Assembly: GCA_045047305.1 (NCBI GenBank)
Contig: JASFYO010000048.1
Coordinates: 1-10,763, forward strand
Direction of reading: 5' to 3'
Length of the DNA: 10,763 nucleotides
Origin: Planctomycetota bacterium
Lineage (GTDB): Bacteria > Planctomycetota > UBA1135
Position numbers and translations under genes: made by a program. The notes beneath the pieces were generated by a model, which did not search any database, was not told the DNA's origin, and worked only from the letters and a program-made list of their open reading frames with translations. Of this stretch, positions 1 to 10,763 are shown one piece after another (position 1 is the stretch's first letter; each line of letters begins with the position of its first letter).

Positions 1-2544
1 GATGGATGGAAGGCCGTCGCGCCTTGGCTGGAGCTTGCAGCACGTGGCAATCGCAACCTCACGGCACCTTTCTTGCGCGCAACTTTTGGCATGCCGCCAA
101 AAATCCTTGGCTCCTCTCAACACACCGGACTAGATGATTTTCCACCGGGTGACTACTCCATTACAGCGCACCTTAAGGATTACGTACCAAGCGAACAAGC
201 CTTGCATCTAGAGGGTGGCGGCGAACAAATCGTGGAGCTTGAGCTCATCGCTGCCGGCCAAGCAACAGGACGTGTTTTGGTCGACGGCAAGCCCTATGCG
301 AACGCCAAAGTAGCCTTGCTTTTTACCGAACGCAGCGACGATATTTTCGGATTCACCCTTGATCTATTCCGCAGCCACGGTGTCTTCCCTAGCAACATTC
401 CTGAAGATCTCATCGTCACCACGGATACCGATGGGAAGTTTTCTATCCGCAATGCAAAGCCTGGCTCCTATCAAGTCTTGATCCATGCAAAGGATTATCT
501 CCCCACCATCCAATCGCCAAAGAATGAAATCCTTGCCCGGCAGAGCGTCGACCTTGGTGATTTTGATTTAGCTCTAGGCTTTGGCCTGGAACTAGTTGTG
601 CGCAATCGCGATGGTGAAAACATTGAAGGCGTGGAGGTGCAATGGACTCGCGTTTCCACCAACTCGTTGATGAGCCTCCGCCGTAATCAGCGCGCTCCAG
701 TGGCACAGACCGATGCAGAGGGTCGCGTGTTTTTTGGTGGCCTACCCAGCGAACGTATCACTCTGACTTTAGTCCACGATGATTACGCGCGCCATACAGA
801 GGAATACGACTTCGCCGGGCGCACTGGCCGCGGCACCGACTTATTGGAGATCACCCTAATCCCCGGTGCTTCCATCGCAGGAAAAATCATGGATGGGAGT
901 TCTGGCGCTGCGGTTGCTGGCGCCGAAATCGAGTTGTTTGATGCCGCAGCTAGCGATGAGTTTTTGGCCATGTTCGGCGAAGCAACCTGGGAGGCGCGCA
1001 GTGCCGAAGATGGAGCATTTCACTTCTCGCGCCTACCCGCCGGCGAATACATCATCACTGCCAAACATGATGAGTTTTCAGAAACTCAGTATGGGCCATT
1101 CATGGTCGAAGAAACTGCGGTAGAAGACATCACCATCATGCTGCATAGGGGGGCCACGCTACACGTCAAAGTTTTGGATAGTGAAGGTATTCCCGTCAGC
1201 GACGCTAGCGTAAACGCTCTAAACTCGCAAAGCCAAATCGCCGAGAGTGCAACCACTGATATGGATGGTATCGCGACACTGCCGCCACTGGCTGCAGGCA
1301 ACTATCAAGTCACCTTCACCGACTTGGCCGGCTTCAACACCACCGATAACACCGGATCTCTTGATGTGGCTATGAAGTTCGTCACGCTTGAGGATTATGA
1401 GGAACGAACCCTGGTGATTGGTGGCATTGTGCCTCGTGCAGACCTCGAGGGCGAGGTCCGGCGCGCAGGAGAATTGATGGCAAGCGCAACCATTGCCATC
1501 ATTACCGATTCTGGGGTCAAAGTTGGCATTGCGGATAAACAGGGTTGGTACGAAGTGAAGGGTGTTCCCTTAGGAACCTACACCTACACCGTGACTGCCG
1601 GTACCCCTCTGCGCGGCGGGTCCACGATTTTCGGCCTTCTAGAGCTCACTTCCGAAGGTACCGTACGCAAAGACATTGAGATGCCCCTGGAAGGCATCGA
1701 AGTGCATGTGACTGAAGCTGGCTCTGGCAAAGACTTGGCCAACCTTCCCGTCGCCATGCGTCCGATGGATGGCACCAACATTCAAGGCGGTACTTTTGGC
1801 CTAACTAATAACGATGGCGTTCTGGAGCTTGGCAGCCTAGAGCCTGGACAATACATTTTATCGGTTGGCAACCTTGCCGCAGTGTTCTTGGCTGGCGGCG
1901 ATGCCGGACTCGGGTCCAAACAGATTAGTCCGATTGAGATTCGTGAAGGTAGCGGCATCCAACGCTTTGAAGTGCAGCTGGATCAAGGTGCGACCTTCCG
2001 CGTGCGGGTGCGCGACAGTAATGGCAACTTACTCAAGGGCGTGCACATGCATTACCTCGATTCCAACGGGCAAATCATGAATATCCTGTCCACCAAAGGC
2101 ACCAATTCCAAGGGTGTCGCGGAACTTTCCGGCCTGCCTTCTGGCCCCGGCATCATTCTCATTCGCCACCCGAACCTTGGAGCTACGGAAATCCCTGTCG
2201 ACCTCAGCGCGGGCACTCTCACCAAACGCGAAGCAACCCTCAAGGCCGGAACGCGGGTTTACGTGACTCCTACCGATGCCGATGGCAACCCCATGTCTGG
2301 GATCCTGGTCACCGCCTTAGATTCGCGCGGCGCTCCGGCCTCCTTTGCCTGGTCACAAGCAGAAACTCAGGCCACCAATGCTGCTTTCTTCTCCGGCGGA
2401 GAGCAAAAAGTAGGGCCTTTGTTGCCTGGTGAGTATCAGATTCAGCTCTACCGTCCGGGAAAAGCTCCAGTGCGGCATCGTATTACGGTTGGCGGACAAG
2501 AGGAAATGCACCTGCGGCTTCCCTATTCGTCCGACCAACGCTAG
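1..2544 (+). CDS. Large repeat protein with tandem carboxypeptidase regulatory-like (CarboxypepD_reg / transthyretin-like beta-sandwich) modules; 5'-truncated, probably exported or surface-associated
   Basis: Frame +1 is open from base 1 (GAT GGA TGG AAG...) with no stop before the track's TTG at 73, so the gene probably starts upstream. The stop is TAG at 2542-2544. About 9 degenerate copies of the pattern G/L-x-V-x-D-x-x-G-x-P...T-D-x-x-G-x-F...L-x-P-G-x-Y occur, e.g. TTDTDGKFSIRNAKPGSY, RSAEDGAFHFSRLPAGEY, TTDMDGIATLPPLAAGNY, LTNNDGVLELGSLEPGQY. Confidence 0.85.
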   Translation, partial: DGWKAVAPWLELAARGNRNLTAPFLRATFGMPPKILGSSQHTGLDDFPPGDYSITAHLKDYVPSEQALHLEGGGEQIVELELIAAGQATGRVLVDGKPYANAKVALLFTERSDDIFGFTLDLFRSHGVFPSNIPEDLIVTTDTDGKFSIRNAKPGSYQVLIHAKDYLPTIQSPKNEILARQSVDLGDFDLALGFGLELVVRNRDGENIEGVEVQWTRVSTNSLMSLRRNQRAPVAQTDAEGRVFFGGLPSERITLTLVHDDYARHTEEYDFAGRTGRGTDLLEITLIPGASIAGKIMDGSSGAAVAGAEIELFDAAASDEFLAMFGEATWEARSAEDGAFHFSRLPAGEYIITAKHDEFSETQYGPFMVEETAVEDITIMLHRGATLHVKVLDSEGIPVSDASVNALNSQSQIAESATTDMDGIATLPPLAAGNYQVTFTDLAGFNTTDNTGSLDVAMKFVTLEDYEERTLVIGGIVPRADLEGEVRRAGELMASATIAIITDSGVKVGIADKQGWYEVKGVPLGTYTYTVTAGTPLRGGSTIFGLLELTSEGTVRKDIEMPLEGIEVHVTEAGSGKDLANLPVAMRPMDGTNIQGGTFGLTNNDGVLELGSLEPGQYILSVGNLAAVFLAGGDAGLGSKQISPIEIREGSGIQRFEVQLDQGATFRVRVRDSNGNLLKGVHMHYLDSNGQIMNILSTKGTNSKGVAELSGLPSGPGIILIRHPNLGATEIPVDLSAGTLTKREATLKAGTRVYVTPTDADGNPMSGILVTALDSRGAPASFAWSQAETQATNAAFFSGGEQKVGPLLPGEYQIQLYRPGKAPVRHRITVGGQEEMHLRLPYSSDQR

Positions 2545-2554
2545 TCTTTGGCGC

Positions 2555-3901
2555 ATGTTCCATCGCATCTTTATCGCCAACCGCGGCGAGGTCGCGGCCC
2601 GTCTGGTTCGCGCGTGCCAAGAGATGGGTATCGAAGCTGTATGTGCAGCCTCGCAACCTGACCTTGATGCTGGTTACCCCTACTTGGAGCAGGCAGCAGA
2701 GGTGGTCAATTTGGGCCCAGGCAGCGCCGCTGAATCCTACTTAAAGATGGAGCAGGTGGTGCAAGCGGCCAAGCAAACCCACTGCACCGCGCTGCATCCA
2801 GGATGGGGATTCCTCGCCGAGAACCCACGCTTCGCTGCCCTGTGTGAGGAACATGGCATTACCTTTATTGGCCCAGCACCAGAAGTCATGGACCGCATGG
2901 GGCGCAAGGTGTCGTCGCGCATCGCGGCTGCAGCAGCTGGCTTGCCAGTAGTACCTGGCAGCGATGGTCTACTTTCGAGTGTGGAAGAAGCCGTCGAGGT
3001 TGCGAAACAAATCGGTTACCCCGTGGTGCTGAAAGCTGACGCCGGGGGTGGAGGACGCGGTATTCGTCGCTGTGACCGCGAGGAGGATATTCGTGGTGCA
3101 TTCCAAGAAGCATCGCGCGAAGCCGTGGCCGCATTCGGCAATGGCGATTTGTACATGGAAAAGTACCTGCTTGGCGGGCGTCACATTGAGTTCCAGATTC
3201 TGGGCGACGGCTTCGGCAAGGCGATTCACCTCGGCGAACGTGAGTGCTCGATTCAGCGTCGGCATCAAAAGTTGTTGGAGGAGGCGCCATCTCCGGTCAT
3301 CGACGCAGAGAAGCGCGCTTATTACGGTGGATTGTCGGCGTCGGCAGCGGCCAACTGGAATTATGCGGGCGCCGGCACCATGGAGTACCTATTGGCCGAT
3401 GACGGCAAGCTGTACTTCTTGGAGATGAACACCCGCTTGCAGGTTGAGCATCCGGTGACCGAGCAAATTACTGGCATCGATATCGTGGAGGCGCAAATTC
3501 GGATTGCCGCAGGCGAAGGTCTTCCCTGCACGCAGGAAGAAGTGCAATGGAATGGACATGCTCTTGAGGTACGCTTGAATGCAGAGGACCCAGAGCAAGA
3601 TTTCCGCCCAGCACCAGGAGTTGTGGAGCAAATCTCCTTCCCCGCTGGGCAAGTGCGCATCGATACGCACATGGTTGCGCATGCAAAGATTTCTCCGTTC
3701 TACGATTCTTTGCTTGCCAAAGTGATTGCCTACGGCGACACCCGTGAAGAAACCATCAAGGTCATGCTCGACTGCCTTGCTGGCGCCGATATCCAAGGGC
3801 TCCCAACCACCGCAGCTTTGCATCAGAGCATCCTGCAGCATGAGGACTTCCGGGCCGGCAACTTCGACACCCTTTGGCTTGGGGAATTCCTCAAAGCCTA
3901 G
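2555..3901 (+). CDS. accC: Stand-alone biotin carboxylase subunit of an acetyl/acyl-CoA carboxylase (ATP-grasp), 448 aa
   Basis: Canonical BC motifs are present: IANRGE, HPGWGFLAEN, KADAGGGGRGIR, ERECSIQRRHQKLLEEAPSP, FLEMNTRLQVEHPVTE, RLNAEDP, YDSLLAK. The start is reassigned from the track's 2429 to ATG 2555 (MFHRIFIANRGE), which matches the normal BC N-terminus and lies just after the upstream stop. No fused biotinyl domain. Confidence 0.95.
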   Translation: MFHRIFIANRGEVAARLVRACQEMGIEAVCAASQPDLDAGYPYLEQAAEVVNLGPGSAAESYLKMEQVVQAAKQTHCTALHPGWGFLAENPRFAALCEEHGITFIGPAPEVMDRMGRKVSSRIAAAAAGLPVVPGSDGLLSSVEEAVEVAKQIGYPVVLKADAGGGGRGIRRCDREEDIRGAFQEASREAVAAFGNGDLYMEKYLLGGRHIEFQILGDGFGKAIHLGERECSIQRRHQKLLEEAPSPVIDAEKRAYYGGLSASAAANWNYAGAGTMEYLLADDGKLYFLEMNTRLQVEHPVTEQITGIDIVEAQIRIAAGEGLPCTQEEVQWNGHALEVRLNAEDPEQDFRPAPGVVEQISFPAGQVRIDTHMVAHAKISPFYDSLLAKVIAYGDTREETIKVMLDCLAGADIQGLPTTAALHQSILQHEDFRAGNFDTLWLGEFLKA

Positions 3902-3948
3902 GCCCCACGACTCCACCTGAGTCCCACCCGAGGGGCCTTGCGCGAGGC

Positions 3949-3954
3949 TAATCT
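3949..3954 (+). promoter_or_regulatory. Putative -10 hexamer (TAATCT) for a leaderless transcript of the carboxyltransferase gene
   Basis: TAnnnT ends 6 nt before ATG 3961, with no Shine-Dalgarno in between. Confidence 0.45.
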
Positions 3955-3960
3955 GCTGCC

Positions 3961-5697
3961 ATGGCCATCGTCCCACTCCACCCTTACGGCAGCCCCCGGG
4001 AGCAAACCCTGGATGATGCCGAGGTCGCGCGCAATGTCGCCTTCCTCGATGCTGCCAAGGAGAAGCTCACCGCCAACCGCGCTACCGTGCGTCTTGGTTG
4101 GGGCGAAAAATACACCGAGCGCGTGCATGCCAAAGGCAAACTGACTGCTTGGGAACGCGTGGATGCGTTAAAGGATGAAGGCAGCCCGGTGTTTCCGCTA
4201 GGCACCTTTGTGAACTGGGGACGCGAGTTCGATCAAGGTGGCCGCAAAATGCTGTCTCCTGGTGCTGGCGTAGTCACTGTTTTCGCCAAGGTAGAAGAGC
4301 GCTGGGTCATCATCATTGCGAATGACAACACCGTAGCCAGTGGGTCATGGTGGCCGGAGACCTCAGAGAAAATCCAGCGCGCACAAGAGATAGCATTACG
4401 TTTGCGTTTGCCTGTGGTCTACTTGGTCGACTGCAGTGGCCTGTTCTTGCCAGAGCAGTCACTCTCCTTCCCCGGCGGCACTGGAGCCGGGCACATCTTC
4501 ATGAAGAACTCGCAGTTGTCGGCTGCCGGTGTTCCGCAGATTGCTGGCGTGTTCGGTGATTGCATTGCCGGTGGTGGTTATATGCCCATCATCTCCGATC
4601 GCGTGTACATGACCGAACAGGCCTACATGGTGATCGCCGGGGCGGCACTGATTAAGGGTGCCAAGTCACAGCACCTAACCTCGCTTGGGATTGGCGGTCC
4701 AGAAGTGCATGTGCACCAATCCGGCTGTGCCGATGAACGCGTACCTGATGACGAAGCCTGCATCGCAGCCTTGCGCAGAGAAGTTGCAAGCACTGCCGGT
4801 TCGGGTGCTGATTATCGTCGCGGTGGGGTTGCAGCAGCCGAACCCGAGTTCCCAGCGGAAGAGTTAGATAGCCTCTTCCCACCAGATCATCGCACGGTTT
4901 ACGACGCACGCGAAGTGATTGCACGCTTAGTCGACCGCTCCCTGTTTTGGGAAATCATGCCTGACTTCGGGCAGGAAATGGTGGTTGGAGTCGGACGCAT
5001 CCATGGACTTTACTGCGGCATCATTGCAAATGTGCAAGGGCCGATTGCAGATCCAGAGCATCCTGGCAAGTTACGCCCGGGCGGCATTTTGTACCGCGAT
5101 GGCATCGCTAAGATTTCGCAGTTTTCACGCGCTTGCGATTCGGATGGAATTCCAATTGTGTGGCTGCAGGACATCAGCGGATTCGACATTGGCACCGACG
5201 CGGAAGCACGCGGCTTACTCGGTTATGGATCCAACTTAATCTATACCAACAGCACCAATCAAACTCCGATGTTTACGGTGTTGATGCGCAAAGCCAGTGG
5301 AGCTGGATACTACGCCATGGCTGGCCTGCCCTATGAGCCAGTGGTTCAACTCAGCACGGTGATTGCACGCCAGTCGGTTATGGAAGGACGCACCCTGGCG
5401 ATTGCGGCTTACAACACCAAGCTAGATGACGATTTTGAAATCGCATCGAAGGATCCGGAAGAAATCGCCGCAATCAAGGCTGGCATGGCTGCAGTAGAAG
5501 AGCGTATTGAAGGCGATATGGATCCATACAAAGCGGCCAGTCAACGCGACACCGATGAAATCATTTCCCCAGCAGAGTTACGCCCCTGGCTGTGTTGCCT
5601 AGTGGAATCCGCATATCAAGCTCAAGGCTATCGCCGGGTGAAGAACCCCCGGATTTGGTCGCTGCATGACTTAGCCGCTATCCATGGGGGTGCTTAA
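3961..5697 (+). CDS. Acyl-CoA carboxyltransferase subunit (two crotonase-fold halves), GcdA/MccB-type, 578 aa
   Basis: Motifs include [97 protein letters not shown] and DEII. It lies between the BC and biotin-carrier genes. Carboxyltransferase identity is secure; the substrate is not. Confidence 0.92.
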
Positions 5698-5699
5698 AC

Positions 5700-6284
5700 A
5701 TGAAGGTTAGCCCTATCGTTATGATTTCCAAACCACTCGAGGGCGAGCTTGGTTGGAGTGTGCAGGCCCCTGGTGTCGGCATCGTGCGCGGTTTACCAGC
5801 AACTGGGAGTCGATTACAGCCTGGACAAGCCTGCGGTTTCCTCGAGGTCCTCGGCGTACGCCACCCGCTCCTGCTCCCCCACGATATTGGCGGCGCGGTC
5901 GCCAGTTTGTCTCTCGGTGTGGAGCGCTTACACGCTGTTGCTTATGGTCAAGAGCTGTTGCAGTTAAAGCCGCAACTCGATGCGGAAGACGGCATCGACG
6001 TAATCCTCAGCCCAGACCACGGCGAAGGCGGTTTGCTTTTCCGCTCTCCCCAAGCCGGCCGATTCTATGCCTCACCCGACCCCGATTCTCCCCCCTTTCT
6101 CAAGGTGGGCGATGAACTGGAAGTCGGACGCACCCTTGGCCTACTAGAGGTCATGAAAACCTTCAACCCGATCAAGTATGGCCAAACCCCTGGTATGCCT
6201 CCACGCGCCAAAGTCAAATCCATCTTGGTTCAGGATCGCGACGACGTAGAAGAGGGCACTCCTTTACTGGAACTCGAAATTTGA
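5700..6284 (+). CDS. accB: Biotin carboxyl carrier protein with a C-terminal biotinyl domain and an N-terminal degenerate biotinyl/lipoyl-like domain, 194 aa
   Basis: The C-terminal domain SPQAGRFYASPDPDSPPFLKVGD...LEVMKTFNPI...ILVQDRDDVEEGTPLLEL resembles AccB, including the thumb loop. The biotin-accepting Lys is in EVMK (AAA at 6156-6158, K153). ATG 5700 follows the CT stop after a 2-nt gap; ATG 5721 is an alternative start. Confidence 0.88.
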   Translation: MKVSPIVMISKPLEGELGWSVQAPGVGIVRGLPATGSRLQPGQACGFLEVLGVRHPLLLPHDIGGAVASLSLGVERLHAVAYGQELLQLKPQLDAEDGIDVILSPDHGEGGLLFRSPQAGRFYASPDPDSPPFLKVGDELEVGRTLGLLEVMKTFNPIKYGQTPGMPPRAKVKSILVQDRDDVEEGTPLLELEI

Positions 6285-6859
6285 GTGCGACGCTGACCTT
6301 AGAGCAGGAAATCTTGCTCGCAGAACTAGATATCTACCGCGGCGTCGATGTTGCGGAAGAAGCGCATCGTAAGTTCATTCGCAAGCATGTCGCATCCACA
6401 CCTCAGTGGTGGCACCGCGACACCATGCCCGGACATGTCACCGCAAGCTCCTTTGTGGTCACCCCAGATTTTCAATGGATGCTTTTACACCATCACCGCA
6501 AGCTCGATCGATGGCTGCAGTTTGGCGGGCACGATGATGGCGAACAACATCCGGCCAAAGCCGTGTTGCGCGAACTGGCAGAAGAAAGTGGCCTGCAAGA
6601 CTTCTCCTTCTATGGGAATCCGGTCATCTTTGACCTCGATGTCCACACCATTCCAGCGCGTGCCTCGATGCCGGAGCACAAGCATTTGGATGTACGCTAC
6701 CTCTTCGTTGCCACCATCGAGCAAGAGCTTCAGCCTGCTGCCGGAGAATCCAGAATCCTTCGCTGGACCCGGTTAGAAGACTCCGCTGCCCTCCTGATGG
6801 ACGCAGGCGGGCAGCGTGTGTGCAGAAAACTAGAACAACTCAGGCGCAGCAACGATTGA
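6281..6859 (+). CDS. Nudix hydrolase (GHxTAS...HHRKL..WLQxGGH subfamily), substrate unknown
   Basis: Nudix box variant GGHDDGEQHPAKAVLRELAEESGL, plus family motifs GHVTASSFVV, LLHHHRKLDRWLQ, DLDVHTIP and HKHLDVRYLF. The TTG start overlaps the upstream TGA stop (TTGA, 6281-6284). The exact start is less certain than the gene. Confidence 0.9.
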   Translation: MSATLTLEQEILLAELDIYRGVDVAEEAHRKFIRKHVASTPQWWHRDTMPGHVTASSFVVTPDFQWMLLHHHRKLDRWLQFGGHDDGEQHPAKAVLRELAEESGLQDFSFYGNPVIFDLDVHTIPARASMPEHKHLDVRYLFVATIEQELQPAAGESRILRWTRLEDSAALLMDAGGQRVCRKLEQLRRSND

Positions 6860-6897: not shown

Positions 6898-9285
6898 ATG
6901 ACGCAAGGTGATATTTTGACCTACGCGTTGCAATTTTGCGCCGCAGTCAGCCTTTTCTGTTTAGCTCTCCAATTATGGCGGCAGAAAAAGGCCAAGGGGA
7001 AAGTCCATCAACTCATTCAAGAGCTTGAAGAAGGTCGCCGTAGTTACCACCTTCTAAAGTACCGCGCCGAATCGAACCGGATGCTGATGGAGATTTCCAA
7101 TCTCTTCATTCACGTTTCGGAAGAGGAACTCGATGACTCCATTACCGAGTCCCTTGGTGTGCTAGGTAAGTTCCTCAAAGCGGACCGCGCCTTTGCCTAT
7201 CTGTTCGCGGATAACCATAAGAGTTTCTCCAAAACGCATGGCTGGGCAAAAAAAGGTATCCGCTTAGAGATGGATTCACTGCAAGACTTGCCGATGCGGG
7301 ACTACGCCTGGTTTACCGACCGCATCTTGCGACGGCAGCAAGTTCAGATTCCAAAAACCAGTGCCATCCCAAACGAGGGCAAGCTACTTCGCGATGCTCT
7401 GGTGAAAGAAAAAGTGCAATCCATGATTGCGGTGCCGATGATTAGCCGCGGCACGGTACTAGGGTTTATGGGGCTTGATTCTGTCACCAAGGCACGAACT
7501 TGGCTGGAAGATGAATCCGCAGCCTTACGCGTAGTGGCAGAAATCGCAGCCTCGGAATTCTCCCACCGCGATTCAGAGCAAGAGGCGCGCTCCAACCGGG
7601 GACAATTTGAAACTCTTATTGCCTATGCCCCCGTCGCGATGTTCGTATTTGACCCACGCGGCCGCATTCTCTTTGCGGAAGGTCGAGCGCTCGCCCGTGC
7701 AGGAGTGATTGCCGGTCAACTGGTTGGAAAGTCTGGTTTCGACCTCCTTTCTAAATCTCCAGAAATGTTGCTAAGCCTCGAGCGTGGTATTTCCGGGCAA
7801 GATTTTCGCTCTGAAATCCGCCTTGGAGATCGCGTTTTTGACGGGCAGTTCACCCCAGTCTTGGGTAAAGGGGACAGCATTGAACAGCTCATCGTCATTG
7901 CTACCGATGTCACTGACCGCTCAACGGCAGAGGACCGGCTTTCGAGAGAAAAGCTTTACGACAAGGTCACGCAAATGCCCAACCGGACTCTCTTTCTCGA
8001 TCGGGTGCAGCAGTATTTAGACCGGCAGCAGCATGGTATGACCGGATCCGGCGCAATCCTATTCCTCGACCTCGATCGCTTCGTCAATCTTCACGATGCA
8101 TTAGGACTGGAATCCGCGAATCATTTCCTTGCCCAAGTCGCTGGCCGTTTGCGCGAATTTTTCGCCCCCACCACTTTGATGGCGCGAGTGGGAACCAACG
8201 AGTTTGCAGTTTTAGTAGAGAATACTCCAGATGAAAAAAAGGCCCGAAGCCTGGCCGCAGAGGTGCAATCCAACCTCCGCGATGGTTTTCTGGTAGATGA
8301 ACGCCGCATCGCTGCGACCGCAAGTATTGGTATCGCGTTGTCTTCGGTACGCCATAAATCACCTGCCGACTGGTTGCGAGAAGGACATACCGCCATGGTT
8401 TCCGCAAAACAACTTGGTGGCGCCACCGAGGTTGTCTTTGCACCGGTCATGCATACACGCATTCTGTCGAGTTGGAAATTAGAAGAGGAGCTCAACGATG
8501 CTGTGCGCCAAGAAGCAATTGAGGCTTGGCTACAACCTATCGTCGATTTGAACGATGGCAGTCCCGTTGGCTTTGAAGCCTTGGCTCGTTGGAATCATCC
8601 CGAAGGCGGCATGATTCCTCCAGCGCATTTCATTCCTATTGCCGAAGAAAATGGGCTGATTGTTTCCATCGGGTGGCTCATGCTTCATCAAGCCTGCAAA
8701 CAACTTAGGGCGTGCCATGATTTACATCCTCGTTGGAAGGACCTATTTGTCAGTGTCAATCTTTCGGTGCAACAGCTTCGTGATCCAAGCATGCTGGAGC
8801 GCACCTTACGGATTCTGACTCGCTATGGCCTTAGGCCAAGGCACCTACACCTGGAAGTGACTGAACGCGAGGCACTGAATACATCGGAAGAGGTCATTCC
8901 ACTGCTCGAGAGCATTCACCGTAGTGGTATCAGCCTAAGCCTTGATGATTTTGGAACTGGATACAACTCGCTCAACTATCTCAATAGCCTGCCAGTTGGC
9001 CTTATCAAGATTGACCGCTCCTTCGTGGTCAATATGAGTCGCAGCCACACCGGTCATAAAGTGATTTCAACCATCCTTCTCTTGGCCCATGGACTAGAGC
9101 TCGACACCATCGCGGAAGGCATTGAAACCAAGGAACAACTGCAGGAGTTGTTCGACCTTGGGTGTCGATTGGGCCAAGGATTTTTATTCGCCAAGGCCCT
9201 CGAACCCTCCCTGCTGGCCGATTACCTAGAGAATGGTCATCGCCTAGGTGCTGCCACCATCGGCTCGAAGTACCCAGTGAAGTGA
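6898..9285 (+). CDS. Membrane-anchored GAF-PAS-GGDEF(degenerate)-EAL protein; probable c-di-GMP phosphodiesterase, 795 aa
   Basis: N-terminal hydrophobic helix (ILTYALQFCAAVSLFCLALQLW) followed by a basic stretch. GAF signatures ADRAFAY...SMIAVPM...GFMGLD. PAS region ending in DVTDR. GGDEF domain (DKVTQMPNR, FLDLDRF, ASIGIA) with GTNEF at 8191-8205. EAL domain with EAL (8575-8583), VNLS, LEVTE, DDFGTGY, IKIDRSF, AEGIE and QGFLF. Confidence 0.95.
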   Translation: MTQGDILTYALQFCAAVSLFCLALQLWRQKKAKGKVHQLIQELEEGRRSYHLLKYRAESNRMLMEISNLFIHVSEEELDDSITESLGVLGKFLKADRAFAYLFADNHKSFSKTHGWAKKGIRLEMDSLQDLPMRDYAWFTDRILRRQQVQIPKTSAIPNEGKLLRDALVKEKVQSMIAVPMISRGTVLGFMGLDSVTKARTWLEDESAALRVVAEIAASEFSHRDSEQEARSNRGQFETLIAYAPVAMFVFDPRGRILFAEGRALARAGVIAGQLVGKSGFDLLSKSPEMLLSLERGISGQDFRSEIRLGDRVFDGQFTPVLGKGDSIEQLIVIATDVTDRSTAEDRLSREKLYDKVTQMPNRTLFLDRVQQYLDRQQHGMTGSGAILFLDLDRFVNLHDALGLESANHFLAQVAGRLREFFAPTTLMARVGTNEFAVLVENTPDEKKARSLAAEVQSNLRDGFLVDERRIAATASIGIALSSVRHKSPADWLREGHTAMVSAKQLGGATEVVFAPVMHTRILSSWKLEEELNDAVRQEAIEAWLQPIVDLNDGSPVGFEALARWNHPEGGMIPPAHFIPIAEENGLIVSIGWLMLHQACKQLRACHDLHPRWKDLFVSVNLSVQQLRDPSMLERTLRILTRYGLRPRHLHLEVTEREALNTSEEVIPLLESIHRSGISLSLDDFGTGYNSLNYLNSLPVGLIKIDRSFVVNMSRSHTGHKVISTILLLAHGLELDTIAEGIETKEQLQELFDLGCRLGQGFLFAKALEPSLLADYLENGHRLGAATIGSKYPVK

Positions 9286-9743
9286 ATCCTGCGCAGCAAG
9301 TCGGTCTTCTCTACCGAGCGGTAGTTCAGCCACATTTCTTGCCCTTGACTAAAAGACACGCCAGTTTGCCATTGCAGAGGCAAACGCAACTCTCGAATGG
9401 GCGAGTCGAAGACAACCAAACGATTACTGCCATGTTGGCATTCCAACCATACGCGGTCCTCGTCGTTTACAGCTAAATACTGCTCCGCGCGCGAGAGGAA
9501 CCACATGTCGGTTAGGACAAAGCGATAGCCCTTGGGAACGCGAAGCAACATGCGGGGAGTATCGTCATCAACATTCACACTATTCCAGTAAGGCTCATGG
9601 GCAAGCCCAAGTAATTCTAGAGAATCTTGCTGGGTCGGCACATTGACCGAAGCCAGCGCTTGGTTGTGTTCAGAGAGCAAAACGCCAACGAGGCCGCCGA
9701 CGATTAGAAGTGGAAGGAATGGGAGTATTCTCATGCGTGTCAC
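9237..9743 (-). CDS. Hypothetical exported or membrane-anchored protein (about 165-168 aa), probably a beta-sandwich
   Basis: Fills the gap between two clear genes. The N-terminus looks like a signal peptide (MRILPFLPLLIVGGLVGVLL...QALA). Alternating beta-strand patterns VPKGYRFVLTD, TGVSF, IHFTGYF. The start is either GTG 9743 (7 nt after a TAAACT) or ATG 9734. The stop is TGA at 9239-9237. Confidence 0.75.
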   Translation of the reverse strand: MTRMRILPFLPLLIVGGLVGVLLSEHNQALASVNVPTQQDSLELLGLAHEPYWNSVNVDDDTPRMLLRVPKGYRFVLTDMWFLSRAEQYLAVNDEDRVWLECQHGSNRLVVFDSPIRELRLPLQWQTGVSFSQGQEMWLNYRSVEKTDLLRRIHFTGYFEPMVAAPRR

Positions 9744-9784
9744 CAACTCGAGTTTAGGGTGGGCGTTGCTACCCTGGGACGCGA
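9744..9784. promoter_or_regulatory. Compact divergent promoter region with back-to-back -10-like elements
   Basis: Plus strand TGc-TACCCT (9767-9775) ends 9 nt before ATG 9785. Minus strand TAAACT (9756-9751) ends 7 nt before GTG 9743. The genes are divergent, so promoters should lie here or nearby. Confidence 0.5.
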
Positions 9785-10763
9785 ATGGAACACATTCTCG
9801 TCCTCAATCTGGTTGGATTAACCCCTAAGCTCTTACATTCCGGCAAGATGCCGGCGTTAGAGGCTTATGCGGCGGCGGAAACGGAGCGCACCATGACGCC
9901 CCCGCTGCCTGCTGTCACCTGCACGGCGCAAGCCGACATGCTGATGGGGGTTTCTGCAAGCCAGCATGGCGCCGTCGGTAACGGTTGGTATTTCAAAGAC
10001 TTAGCCGAGGTTTGGTCATGGCGCCAATCTTGCCATTTGATTGATGGCGGCGGCAGTTTGGACTCAATCTTTGACCGCTGGAAAAAGAAGTATCCTCAGT
10101 CCACCACCGCACAGATTTTTTGGTGGTGGAACCTACCTGGTTTCGCTGACTTTTGCGTGACTCCGCGTCCGACCTATTACGCCGACGGCCGTAAGGGCCC
10201 CGATTTCCATACCTCGCCCCCACAACTGCACGATGAACTGCAGGAAACTTTGGGCGACTTCCCACTCTTCCAATTTTGGGGGCCGGGTGCGGGCATTGCC
10301 AGCACCCGATGGATTGCCGCAGCCACTTGCCACATTTTGCAGAAGCACAAACCAGGTCTCGCTTTGGCTTACCTGCCACATCTGGACTATGACCTGCAAC
10401 GCTTCGGCCCCGACTCCGCGCAAGCACTCACGGCCGCTGAAGATTTAGACCATGAGTTTGATCGTTTGCATCAGGCGGCAAGCGCACTTGGCTACCGCGT
10501 GGTCGTGGTCAGCGAATATGGTATTGAAAAAGTCCGTAAAGCTGTATTGCCTAACCGAGCCTTGCGTGAGGCGGGACTCCTTCAAATCCATGCAGCACGA
10601 AATGGTTCGTTATTAGACCCAGGCAATTGCAAAGCCTTCTGCGTTTGCGATCATCAAATCGCGCATGTGTACGTGGCCAATGACGAAGACCTTGCGCCAA
10701 CGAAAAAGGTACTCGCCAAACTCGATGGCATCGAACGTATTCTCGAATCCTCTGAGCTGGCAA
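9785..10763 (+). CDS. eboF: EboF-like alkaline phosphatase superfamily / nucleotide pyrophosphatase-phosphodiesterase protein; 3'-truncated (326 codons in window)
   Basis: Not in the ORF track because it runs off the window. Hand translation from ATG 9785 has no stop: MEHILVLNLVGLTPKLL...PPLPAVTCTAQADML...HGAVGNGWYFKDLAEVWSWRQS...IFWWWN...VTPRPTYYADGRKGPD...GDFPLFQFWGP...YLPHLDYDLQRFGP...VVSEYGI...NRALREAG...CDHQIAHVYV. These match motifs I recall for the EboF family. The putative nucleophile is Thr45 (9917-9919). Confidence 0.88.
   Translation, partial: MEHILVLNLVGLTPKLLHSGKMPALEAYAAAETERTMTPPLPAVTCTAQADMLMGVSASQHGAVGNGWYFKDLAEVWSWRQSCHLIDGGGSLDSIFDRWKKKYPQSTTAQIFWWWNLPGFADFCVTPRPTYYADGRKGPDFHTSPPQLHDELQETLGDFPLFQFWGPGAGIASTRWIAAATCHILQKHKPGLALAYLPHLDYDLQRFGPDSAQALTAAEDLDHEFDRLHQAASALGYRVVVVSEYGIEKVRKAVLPNRALREAGLLQIHAARNGSLLDPGNCKAFCVCDHQIAHVYVANDEDLAPTKKVLAKLDGIERILESSELA

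Follow-up and report, generated by a model that had tools for sequence, protein, structure and literature searches.

A split biotin-dependent carboxylase of Planctomycetota and Myxococcota that probably takes the place of 3-methylcrotonyl-CoA carboxylase

The window analysed here, a 10,763-nt stretch of a Planctomycetota genome (assembly GCA_045047305.1, contig JASFYO010000048.1, contig C48 in our numbering), carries three intact, co-directional open reading frames encoding a biotin carboxylase (BC), a two-domain carboxyltransferase (CT) of a group that we termed clade X, and a biotin carrier (Table 1). The trio is most probably a split 3-methylcrotonyl-CoA carboxylase (MCC) of its host, non-orthologous to MccAB and acting in its place, and a role of the carboxylase in leucine/isovalerate breakdown is likely from its phylogenetic profile and the gene context of its relatives. 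We assign this role because the trio occurs where other MCC-type CTs are missing, which is the strongest evidence on the substrate, and because of leucine-type operons in relatives, pathway genes in the host, and the gamma-lineage connectivity and N-terminal helix of the CT. The original prediction, made from the DNA letters, of a split three-component enzyme acting on the gamma carbon of an enoyl-CoA is upheld by the trees, by a BC clade dedicated to these loci and by the connectivity of the CT model. Of its two suggested substrates, a separate 3-methylcrotonyl-CoA carboxylase lineage is favoured by the comparative evidence; a crotonyl-CoA-type enzyme found no positive support as a physiological role, and crotonyl-CoA carboxylation by clade X is at most a possible side activity.

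Clade X was compared with other MCC-type CTs in samples of 151 Myxococcota and 201 Planctomycetota genomes; these others are LiuB-type CTs and types Y and Z, the last two called MCC-type from operons with 3-hydroxy-3-methylglutaryl-CoA (HMG-CoA) lyase and/or hydratase. Among the Myxococcota, 42 genomes carry clade X, 36 a LiuB-type CT (22 at at least 63% identity and 14 more at 53–58%) and 47 type Z; no genome has two, and the overlap of clade X with the other types is 0 of 42, with 23 expected by chance. The Planctomycetota sample comprises 21 genomes with clade X and 83 with another MCC-type CT (59 LiuB-type, 23 type Y, 1 type Z), and the overlap is again nil (0 of 21, 8.7 expected). Hypergeometric values for this exclusion, 1e-19 and 6e-6, are too strong, since related genomes are not independent. 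Of the 41 genomes in the order of the host, 38 carry one and only one of the four types and none has two: 26 fall in the clade-X score band (10 checked by identity, the rest called by score band), 6 have LiuB, 5 Z and 1 Y, and 3 have none. The swap between clade X and the other types recurs inside one order, and also inside family f24, where one genome has X and four have LiuB. Type Y CTs (L089–L098, L100) are 45–49% identical to LiuB and have no neighbouring BC; HMG-CoA lyase and/or hydratase lies nearby in several of their loci.

The context of the trio in relatives points to the same pathway. A metagenome scan gave 72 clade-X loci, 11 of which (L339 and L341 being near-copies) have the trio in a leucine-type operon, at the MCC slot; its neighbours there are a hydratase of LiuC type, a dehydrogenase for acyl-CoA and/or HMG-CoA synthase plus thiolase. 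Two layouts were seen, BC–CT–carrier–dehydrogenase–hydratase and HMG-CoA synthase–thiolase–small gene–hydratase–BC–CT–carrier; the small gene, which gave no NCBIfam match, we take to be probably DUF35. The hydratases of these operons find their best matches in liu-operon hydratases (41–48%) and share their top NCBIfam models, and in genome G053 a LiuC-type gene lies directly upstream of the trio. At L311, L323, L327, L339, L364 and L365 an archaeal-type HMG-CoA synthase and/or thiolase heads the leucine-type operon; HMG-CoA lyase gave no match at any of the 72 metagenome loci. Separately, in three clade-X genomes (G230, G236 and G289) a stand-alone BC of the MccA/PCC lineage is accompanied by HMG-CoA lyase and a hydratase (L241 6180–9932, L242 4415–8168 and L243 7971–11548). 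Neither a CT nor a carrier match lies nearby, and at L241 and L243 a ferredoxin-like gene comes ahead of the BC; these loci look like a leucine operon that lost its CT.

The host genome (2.83 Mb, 87.7% complete; closest named relatives are metagenome-assembled genomes of Planctomycetota) holds further candidate steps of the pathway, unlinked to the trio. An HMG-CoA lyase scoring over the cut-off lies on contig C3, adjacent to a PRK07657-like hydratase that is 50–57% identical to the hydratases of type Z operons. On contig C77, a dehydrogenase with an IGEGTSE motif is the best host match of four of the six X-operon dehydrogenases compared; the motif, which we take to be of isovaleryl-CoA type, recurs in three X-operon dehydrogenases, and the best PDB matches of the C77 enzyme are generic short-chain enzymes. 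A search of the host, which the original prediction had proposed, found neither gcdB/oadB (PF03977) nor a CT of LiuB or Z type, the genome being 87.7% complete. The host glutaryl-CoA dehydrogenase (GCDH) has TYEGT and matches Thermus, Mycobacterium and human GCDH best (494 bits versus 192 for 3mpi), so that it is, judged by sequence, of the self-decarboxylating type, the distinction of GCDH types by Tyr versus Val being our assumption. Further host genes make up a benzoyl-CoA cluster of anaerobic type that includes glutaryl-CoA dehydrogenase and box-like genes (G000 C18:16527–25464 and C3:112233–116881; gene names are those we presume). A link between the trio and this benzoyl-CoA pathway was considered and rejected because the GCDH is of the decarboxylating type.

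Whole-sequence scores place the CT near both MCC beta subunits and GcdA: 277.5 bits to AccD1, 262.7 to C. symbiosum GcdA, 259.6 to P. aeruginosa MccB and 250.2 to A. fermentans GcdA, the best PCC (propionyl-CoA carboxylase)-type protein reaching 205.9; AccD1 is described as the mycobacterial MCC beta subunit in excerpts of bioRxiv 10.64898/2026.03.23.713199. Because the two groups nearly tie, the GcdA-like character first proposed from motifs is visible in the tree and not in the score; the motifs themselves are all present in the translation, and their claimed alignment to GcdA 3gf3 or MCC 3u9r is borne out. We built trees by FastTree (119 rows), with SH-aLRT (53 rows) and under a C20 mixture (38 rows) from selected subsets that include 24 of the clade-X loci fetched, long-branch rows being dropped from the smaller ones. 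GcdA is represented by P0150 and L128 and AtuC by L122, stand-ins anchored by PDB searches, and LiuB by an IVD-linked Rhizobium LiuB; supports are SH-aLRT/aBayes values on a fixed IQ-TREE topology plus a quick C20 tree rather than bootstraps. All three trees agree that the nearest neighbour of clade X (99–100) is a small deep group (98), with GcdA coming next (99–100), and that these stand together apart from MccB, AtuC and type Y (98–99). Clade X is sister to GcdA rather than nested within it and likewise lies outside the MccB clade. As a description of where clade X sits in the tree, the suggested bridge between MCC and Gcd is correct. An approximately unbiased test rejects a group that unites X plus its sister group with MccB/AtuC/Y and leaves GcdA outside (p=0.00685), the constrained group having been named after earlier trees had been seen. 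The deep sister group consists of eight metagenome loci (L287, L291–L296, L303), and no BC, carrier or GcdB match was found at them.

The AlphaFold2 model of the CT (predicted local distance difference test (pLDDT) score 92.2) has a long N-terminal helix at residues 19–45 and superposes on GcdA 1pix (VIA-align Z 46.9, root-mean-square deviation (rmsd) 2.1) and on MCC 3u9s (Z 46.7, rmsd 2.4), whereas full-length PCC-type chains give an rmsd of about 23 Å. The N- and C-domain connectivity predicted by the model is that of MCC and GcdA, unlike PCC. Excerpts of PMC4673880 set out a two-lineage scheme of CTs that includes a gamma-carbon (enoyl-CoA) lineage, and by this scheme the modelled CT classes as a gamma-carbon, enoyl-CoA enzyme.

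The three genes belong together. In the 80 closest related genome loci, drawn from Planctomycetota, Myxococcota and a few other groups, the carrier is present in 77 (the three misses are at contig ends), and in 75 it follows the CT at no more than 400 nt. A BC occurs at 67 loci, at 42 of them within 200 nt; among the 13 loci that lack one, four have the full 6 kb upstream and one has 5.9 kb. Linkage of the trio is conserved in Planctomycetota and Myxococcota and is not due to chance, which together with the intact reading frames confirms the contiguous three-subunit cluster described in the original prediction, and neighbourhood clustering of the same 80 loci found nothing besides the trio kept across phyla. 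The BC is stand-alone and AccC-like, without a C-terminal BT/BCCP extension. All 22 BCs of clade-X loci in the tree form one clade (SH-aLRT 98) that adjoins a single AccC row and stands apart from MccA, AtuF and PCC BCs; clade-X BCs end in tails of 0–16 residues with no BT tail.

The carrier consists of two all-beta domains with a disordered linker between them, as judged from 31–36 aligned carriers and a model with pLDDT 90.7. Its C-terminal domain superposes on 4hr7_B (VIA-align Z 14.5, rmsd 1.5, 40% identity), and Met152 and Lys153 are invariant in 36 of 36 aligned carriers. The N-terminal part is also confidently modelled (residues 1–90, pLDDT 89–98 per block), with VIA-align Z scores of 8.8 to H-protein 1dxm, middling and obtained on a model, and 9.2 to HlyD 5c21. 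Its hairpin has no lysine, LEVLG versus LEVMK in the C-terminal domain, and it is helix-free in the model and so would not be a BT domain. BLAST of the carrier halves against each other gave no alignment, their likeness being one of alignment pattern and model. Excerpts of PMC4673880 and PMC3199775 assign the BT domain a part in subunit contact in MCC, PCC and geranyl-CoA carboxylase (GCC); since no BT domain is present here, the N-terminal carrier domain is a candidate tether. In the reaction that we propose by analogy with MCC, the BC would carboxylate the biotin of Lys153 with ATP and bicarbonate, and the carrier would move to the CT site, held to the CT or the BC, speculatively, by its lysine-less domain. 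There the gamma-methyl group of the enoyl-CoA would be carboxylated to give 3-methylglutaconyl-CoA, which the hydratase on contig C3 and HMG-CoA lyase would then turn into acetoacetate and acetyl-CoA.

Several observations weigh against assigning the trio to MCC, among them one residue. According to excerpts of PMC4673880, Phe191 is diagnostic of MCC and the F191G substitution abolished MCC activity of the Pseudomonas enzyme; the CT has Ala176 at this site, a mapping based on those excerpts and on alignments made here, and Ala is found in 116 of 119 homologues, the other three having failed the pattern match. In the trees the CT also stands closer to a decarboxylase than to MccB. Pathway context is absent from the window itself: neither there nor in the 80 closest genome loci does a leucine-type gene directly adjoin the trio, and the sole leucine-type match is a hydratase 4.6 kb off on the other strand. 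Among the 72 metagenome loci, 61 lack a leucine-type context, many on short contigs. HMG-CoA lyase is found in 40 of 42 Myxococcota X genomes and in only 8 of 21 Planctomycetota X genomes; at 1e-25 it has no match in 13 clade-X and 9 LiuB Planctomycetota genomes, and since those nine tested LiuB genomes (0/9, families f3, f20 and f24) lack it as well, the gap is not specific to X. The genomes without a match include G004, G069, G091, G158, G190, G043, G109 and G142. The partition is itself weakened by the relatedness of the genomes and their incompleteness. LiuB-like CTs at 46–54% identity occur in X genomes of both phyla, 30 of 42 in Myxococcota and 7 of 21 in Planctomycetota, and G020, G053 and G115 carry third CTs outside the classification. 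All 18 examined of these 37 LiuB-like CTs have the GCC signature and for these a role as MccB was rejected, with GCC having weak MCC activity according to excerpts of PMC4673880.

The objection from Phe191 is softened, not removed, by other CTs of leucine-type operons: Ala occupies the site in clade-X CTs within such operons and in type Z CTs (four of five show the motif), and Gly occupies it in the IVD-linked L169, L170 and L176, which suggests from sequence that the rule is not general. Type Z CTs share with clade X the split architecture, the Ala and the operon type, yet they belong to an unrelated branch of the CT tree, are 33–34% identical to clade X and never occur in the same genome of our samples. 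They resemble, we assume, YngE and the yng operon of B. subtilis. Excerpts of bioRxiv 10.1101/2023.04.14.536918 present the yng operon as leucine-catabolic. With MccAB/LiuBD (3u9s; AccD1 4q0g/9yx0) the trio shares the likely reaction and pathway slot, the connectivity, the N-terminal helix and an MCC-length three-residue insertion, absent in GCC, that alignment places ahead of Ala176 (criterion from excerpts of PMC4673880). It differs in the separate CT clade, the Ala for Phe191, the BC outside the MccA group, and a separate BC and carrier without BT in place of a fused BC–BT–BCCP alpha subunit. We think it quite probable that the trio works like MCC; it is no canonical MccAB member, as it lacks Phe191 and the fused alpha subunit and stands outside the MccB clade.

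The nearest characterised relative in the tree, GcdA of the Na+-translocating glutaconyl-CoA decarboxylase (1pix, 3gf3), shares fold, connectivity and several motifs with the CT at 29–30% identity in structural alignment. The sister relation, a GcdA-like Cys after the YLVD site, a W-x-P motif rich in Trp, the RK pair that precedes the second glycine loop, the AYQ at the C-terminus and a small residue in place of Phe191, which the GcdA-like P0150 also has, would fit an enzyme that is mainly an ATP-dependent crotonyl-CoA carboxylase making glutaconyl-CoA, GcdA chemistry reversed. Such an enzyme is nevertheless improbable, as it leaves the exclusion of other MCC-type CTs and the leucine-type operons unexplained and, paired with the decarboxylating host GCDH, would run a futile cycle; the CT moreover has [10 protein letters not shown] for GTN(P/V)AGGGY and lacks the roughly 20-residue insertion after the GAG helix, features defined for GcdA from four GcdA-like rows and PDB alignments. 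Another reading, which we hold to be very unlikely, treats the BC as incidental and the CT as the subunit of a glutaconyl-CoA decarboxylase or transcarboxylase that has a GcdB pump or some other acceptor as its partner. GcdA kinship, the host benzoyl-CoA cluster on C18, the loci without BC and an OadB/GcdB gene (PF03977 over the cut-off) in 7 of 63 X genomes speak for it; yet those seven genes are always on other contigs, 56 of 63 X genomes, host included, have none, both GcdA controls keep theirs on the GcdA contig, the BCs form one dedicated clade and the host GCDH is of the self-decarboxylating type. Unlike GcdA, then, clade X comes with an ATP-dependent BC and usually without GcdB, and the window proteins, searched with Pfam/NCBIfam profiles, include no membrane pump subunit, as had been noticed at the outset. 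The trio is not a Gcd.

We likewise give little probability to an enoyl-CoA carboxylase with a broad pocket that in reality acts on a larger, 3-methyl-branched, geranyl-CoA-like enoyl-CoA. The Ala could widen the pocket in the way that, on excerpts of PMC4673880, Gly widens it in GCC, and the operon hydratases also score on a gamma-carboxygeranoyl-CoA hydratase model; the liu-operon hydratase L099, however, scores alike on that model. AtuCF (5ikl) shares with clade X the gamma lineage and a small residue at the pocket site, but AtuC is 26% identical and has Gly162 with a three-residue deletion, whereas the CT keeps the MCC-length insertion. Separate AtuC-type CTs also occur in many X genomes: the CT excludes MccB, not AtuC. 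That the trio is an extra acetyl- or propionyl-CoA carboxylase is scarcely credible: its stand-alone BC and its biotinyl domain resemble AccC and AccB of heteromeric acetyl-CoA carboxylase, but it has a single-chain gamma-lineage CT with connectivity unlike PCC-type chains and an extra lysine-less carrier domain, and the host has its own accBC, accA and accD and a PccB–BC–carrier trio. The tree, the model and the survey put clade X outside the MccB clade, without PCC-type connectivity and with a dedicated BC, not a GcdB pump, as its partner, and none of the computational outcomes named beforehand as speaking against a split gamma-carboxylase was observed.

If the trio is an MCC, the lineage is common, being present in 28% of sampled Myxococcota and 10% of sampled Planctomycetota, and goes unrecognised behind annotations that are vague or wrong, 'propionyl-CoA carboxylase' among them, so that leucine catabolism would be mis-scored there; the published Phe191 rule would fail to cover all enzymes in the MCC slot. 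The reaction itself is ordinary. The nearest relatives of GcdA would be carboxylases, making it testable which residues turn a gamma-carboxylase into a sodium-pump decarboxylase, and an assembly that lacks BT and carries a decoy biotinyl domain invites structural work. A wider proposal, which we hold to be unlikely, is that clade X represents an extant form of the carboxylase ancestral to the Gcd pump subunit, that its Ala in place of Phe191 lets it usefully carboxylate crotonyl-CoA besides 3-methylcrotonyl-CoA, and that it assembles without BT through the lysine-less biotinyl-fold tether. If true, this would be a natural ATP-dependent crotonyl-CoA carboxylase with a holoenzyme architecture not found in the literature searched. 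No description of clade X was found in that literature, most subscription journals being outside its coverage.

Table 1 Features of the window (positions in nt)
Feature	Position	Strand	Remarks
Repeated carboxypeptidase-regulatory/Ig-like domain protein	1–2544	+	5′-truncated
Biotin carboxylase (BC)	2555–3901	+	448 aa; PF00289/PF02786/PF02785
Carboxyltransferase (CT), clade X	3961–5697	+	578 aa, two-domain; PF01039, E 4.5e-105
Ala176 of CT	4486–4488	+	Site of MCC-beta Phe191 / GCC-beta Gly162, from alignments
Biotin carrier	5700–6284	+	194 aa; PF00364 at residues 114–192; motif EVMKTF
Carrier N-terminal domain	5700–5987	+	Predicted all-beta biotinyl/lipoyl-type (barrel-sandwich hybrid) fold
Carrier C-terminal biotinyl domain	6024–6284	+	E. 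coli AccB-like
Lys153 of carrier	6156–6158 (codon)	+	Predicted biotinylation site in EVMKTF
NUDIX hydrolase gene	6281–6859	+	Overlaps carrier stop by 4 nt
GAF-PAS-GGDEF-EAL protein	6898–9285	+	
169-aa protein	9237–9746	-	No Pfam/NCBIfam match; kept in 15/80 loci
Alkaline-phosphatase-family protein	9785–10762	+	Cut by contig end

The genes of the trio are separated by 59 nt (BC–CT) and 2 nt (CT–carrier). A hairpin in the BC–CT spacer was considered and rejected (z −0.96), and a promoter and terminator scan found nothing beyond shuffled controls. Beyond the trio, the NUDIX gene is kept in 16 of the 80 related loci, close kin only, and a phosphodiesterase in 18 of 80, both reflecting local synteny.

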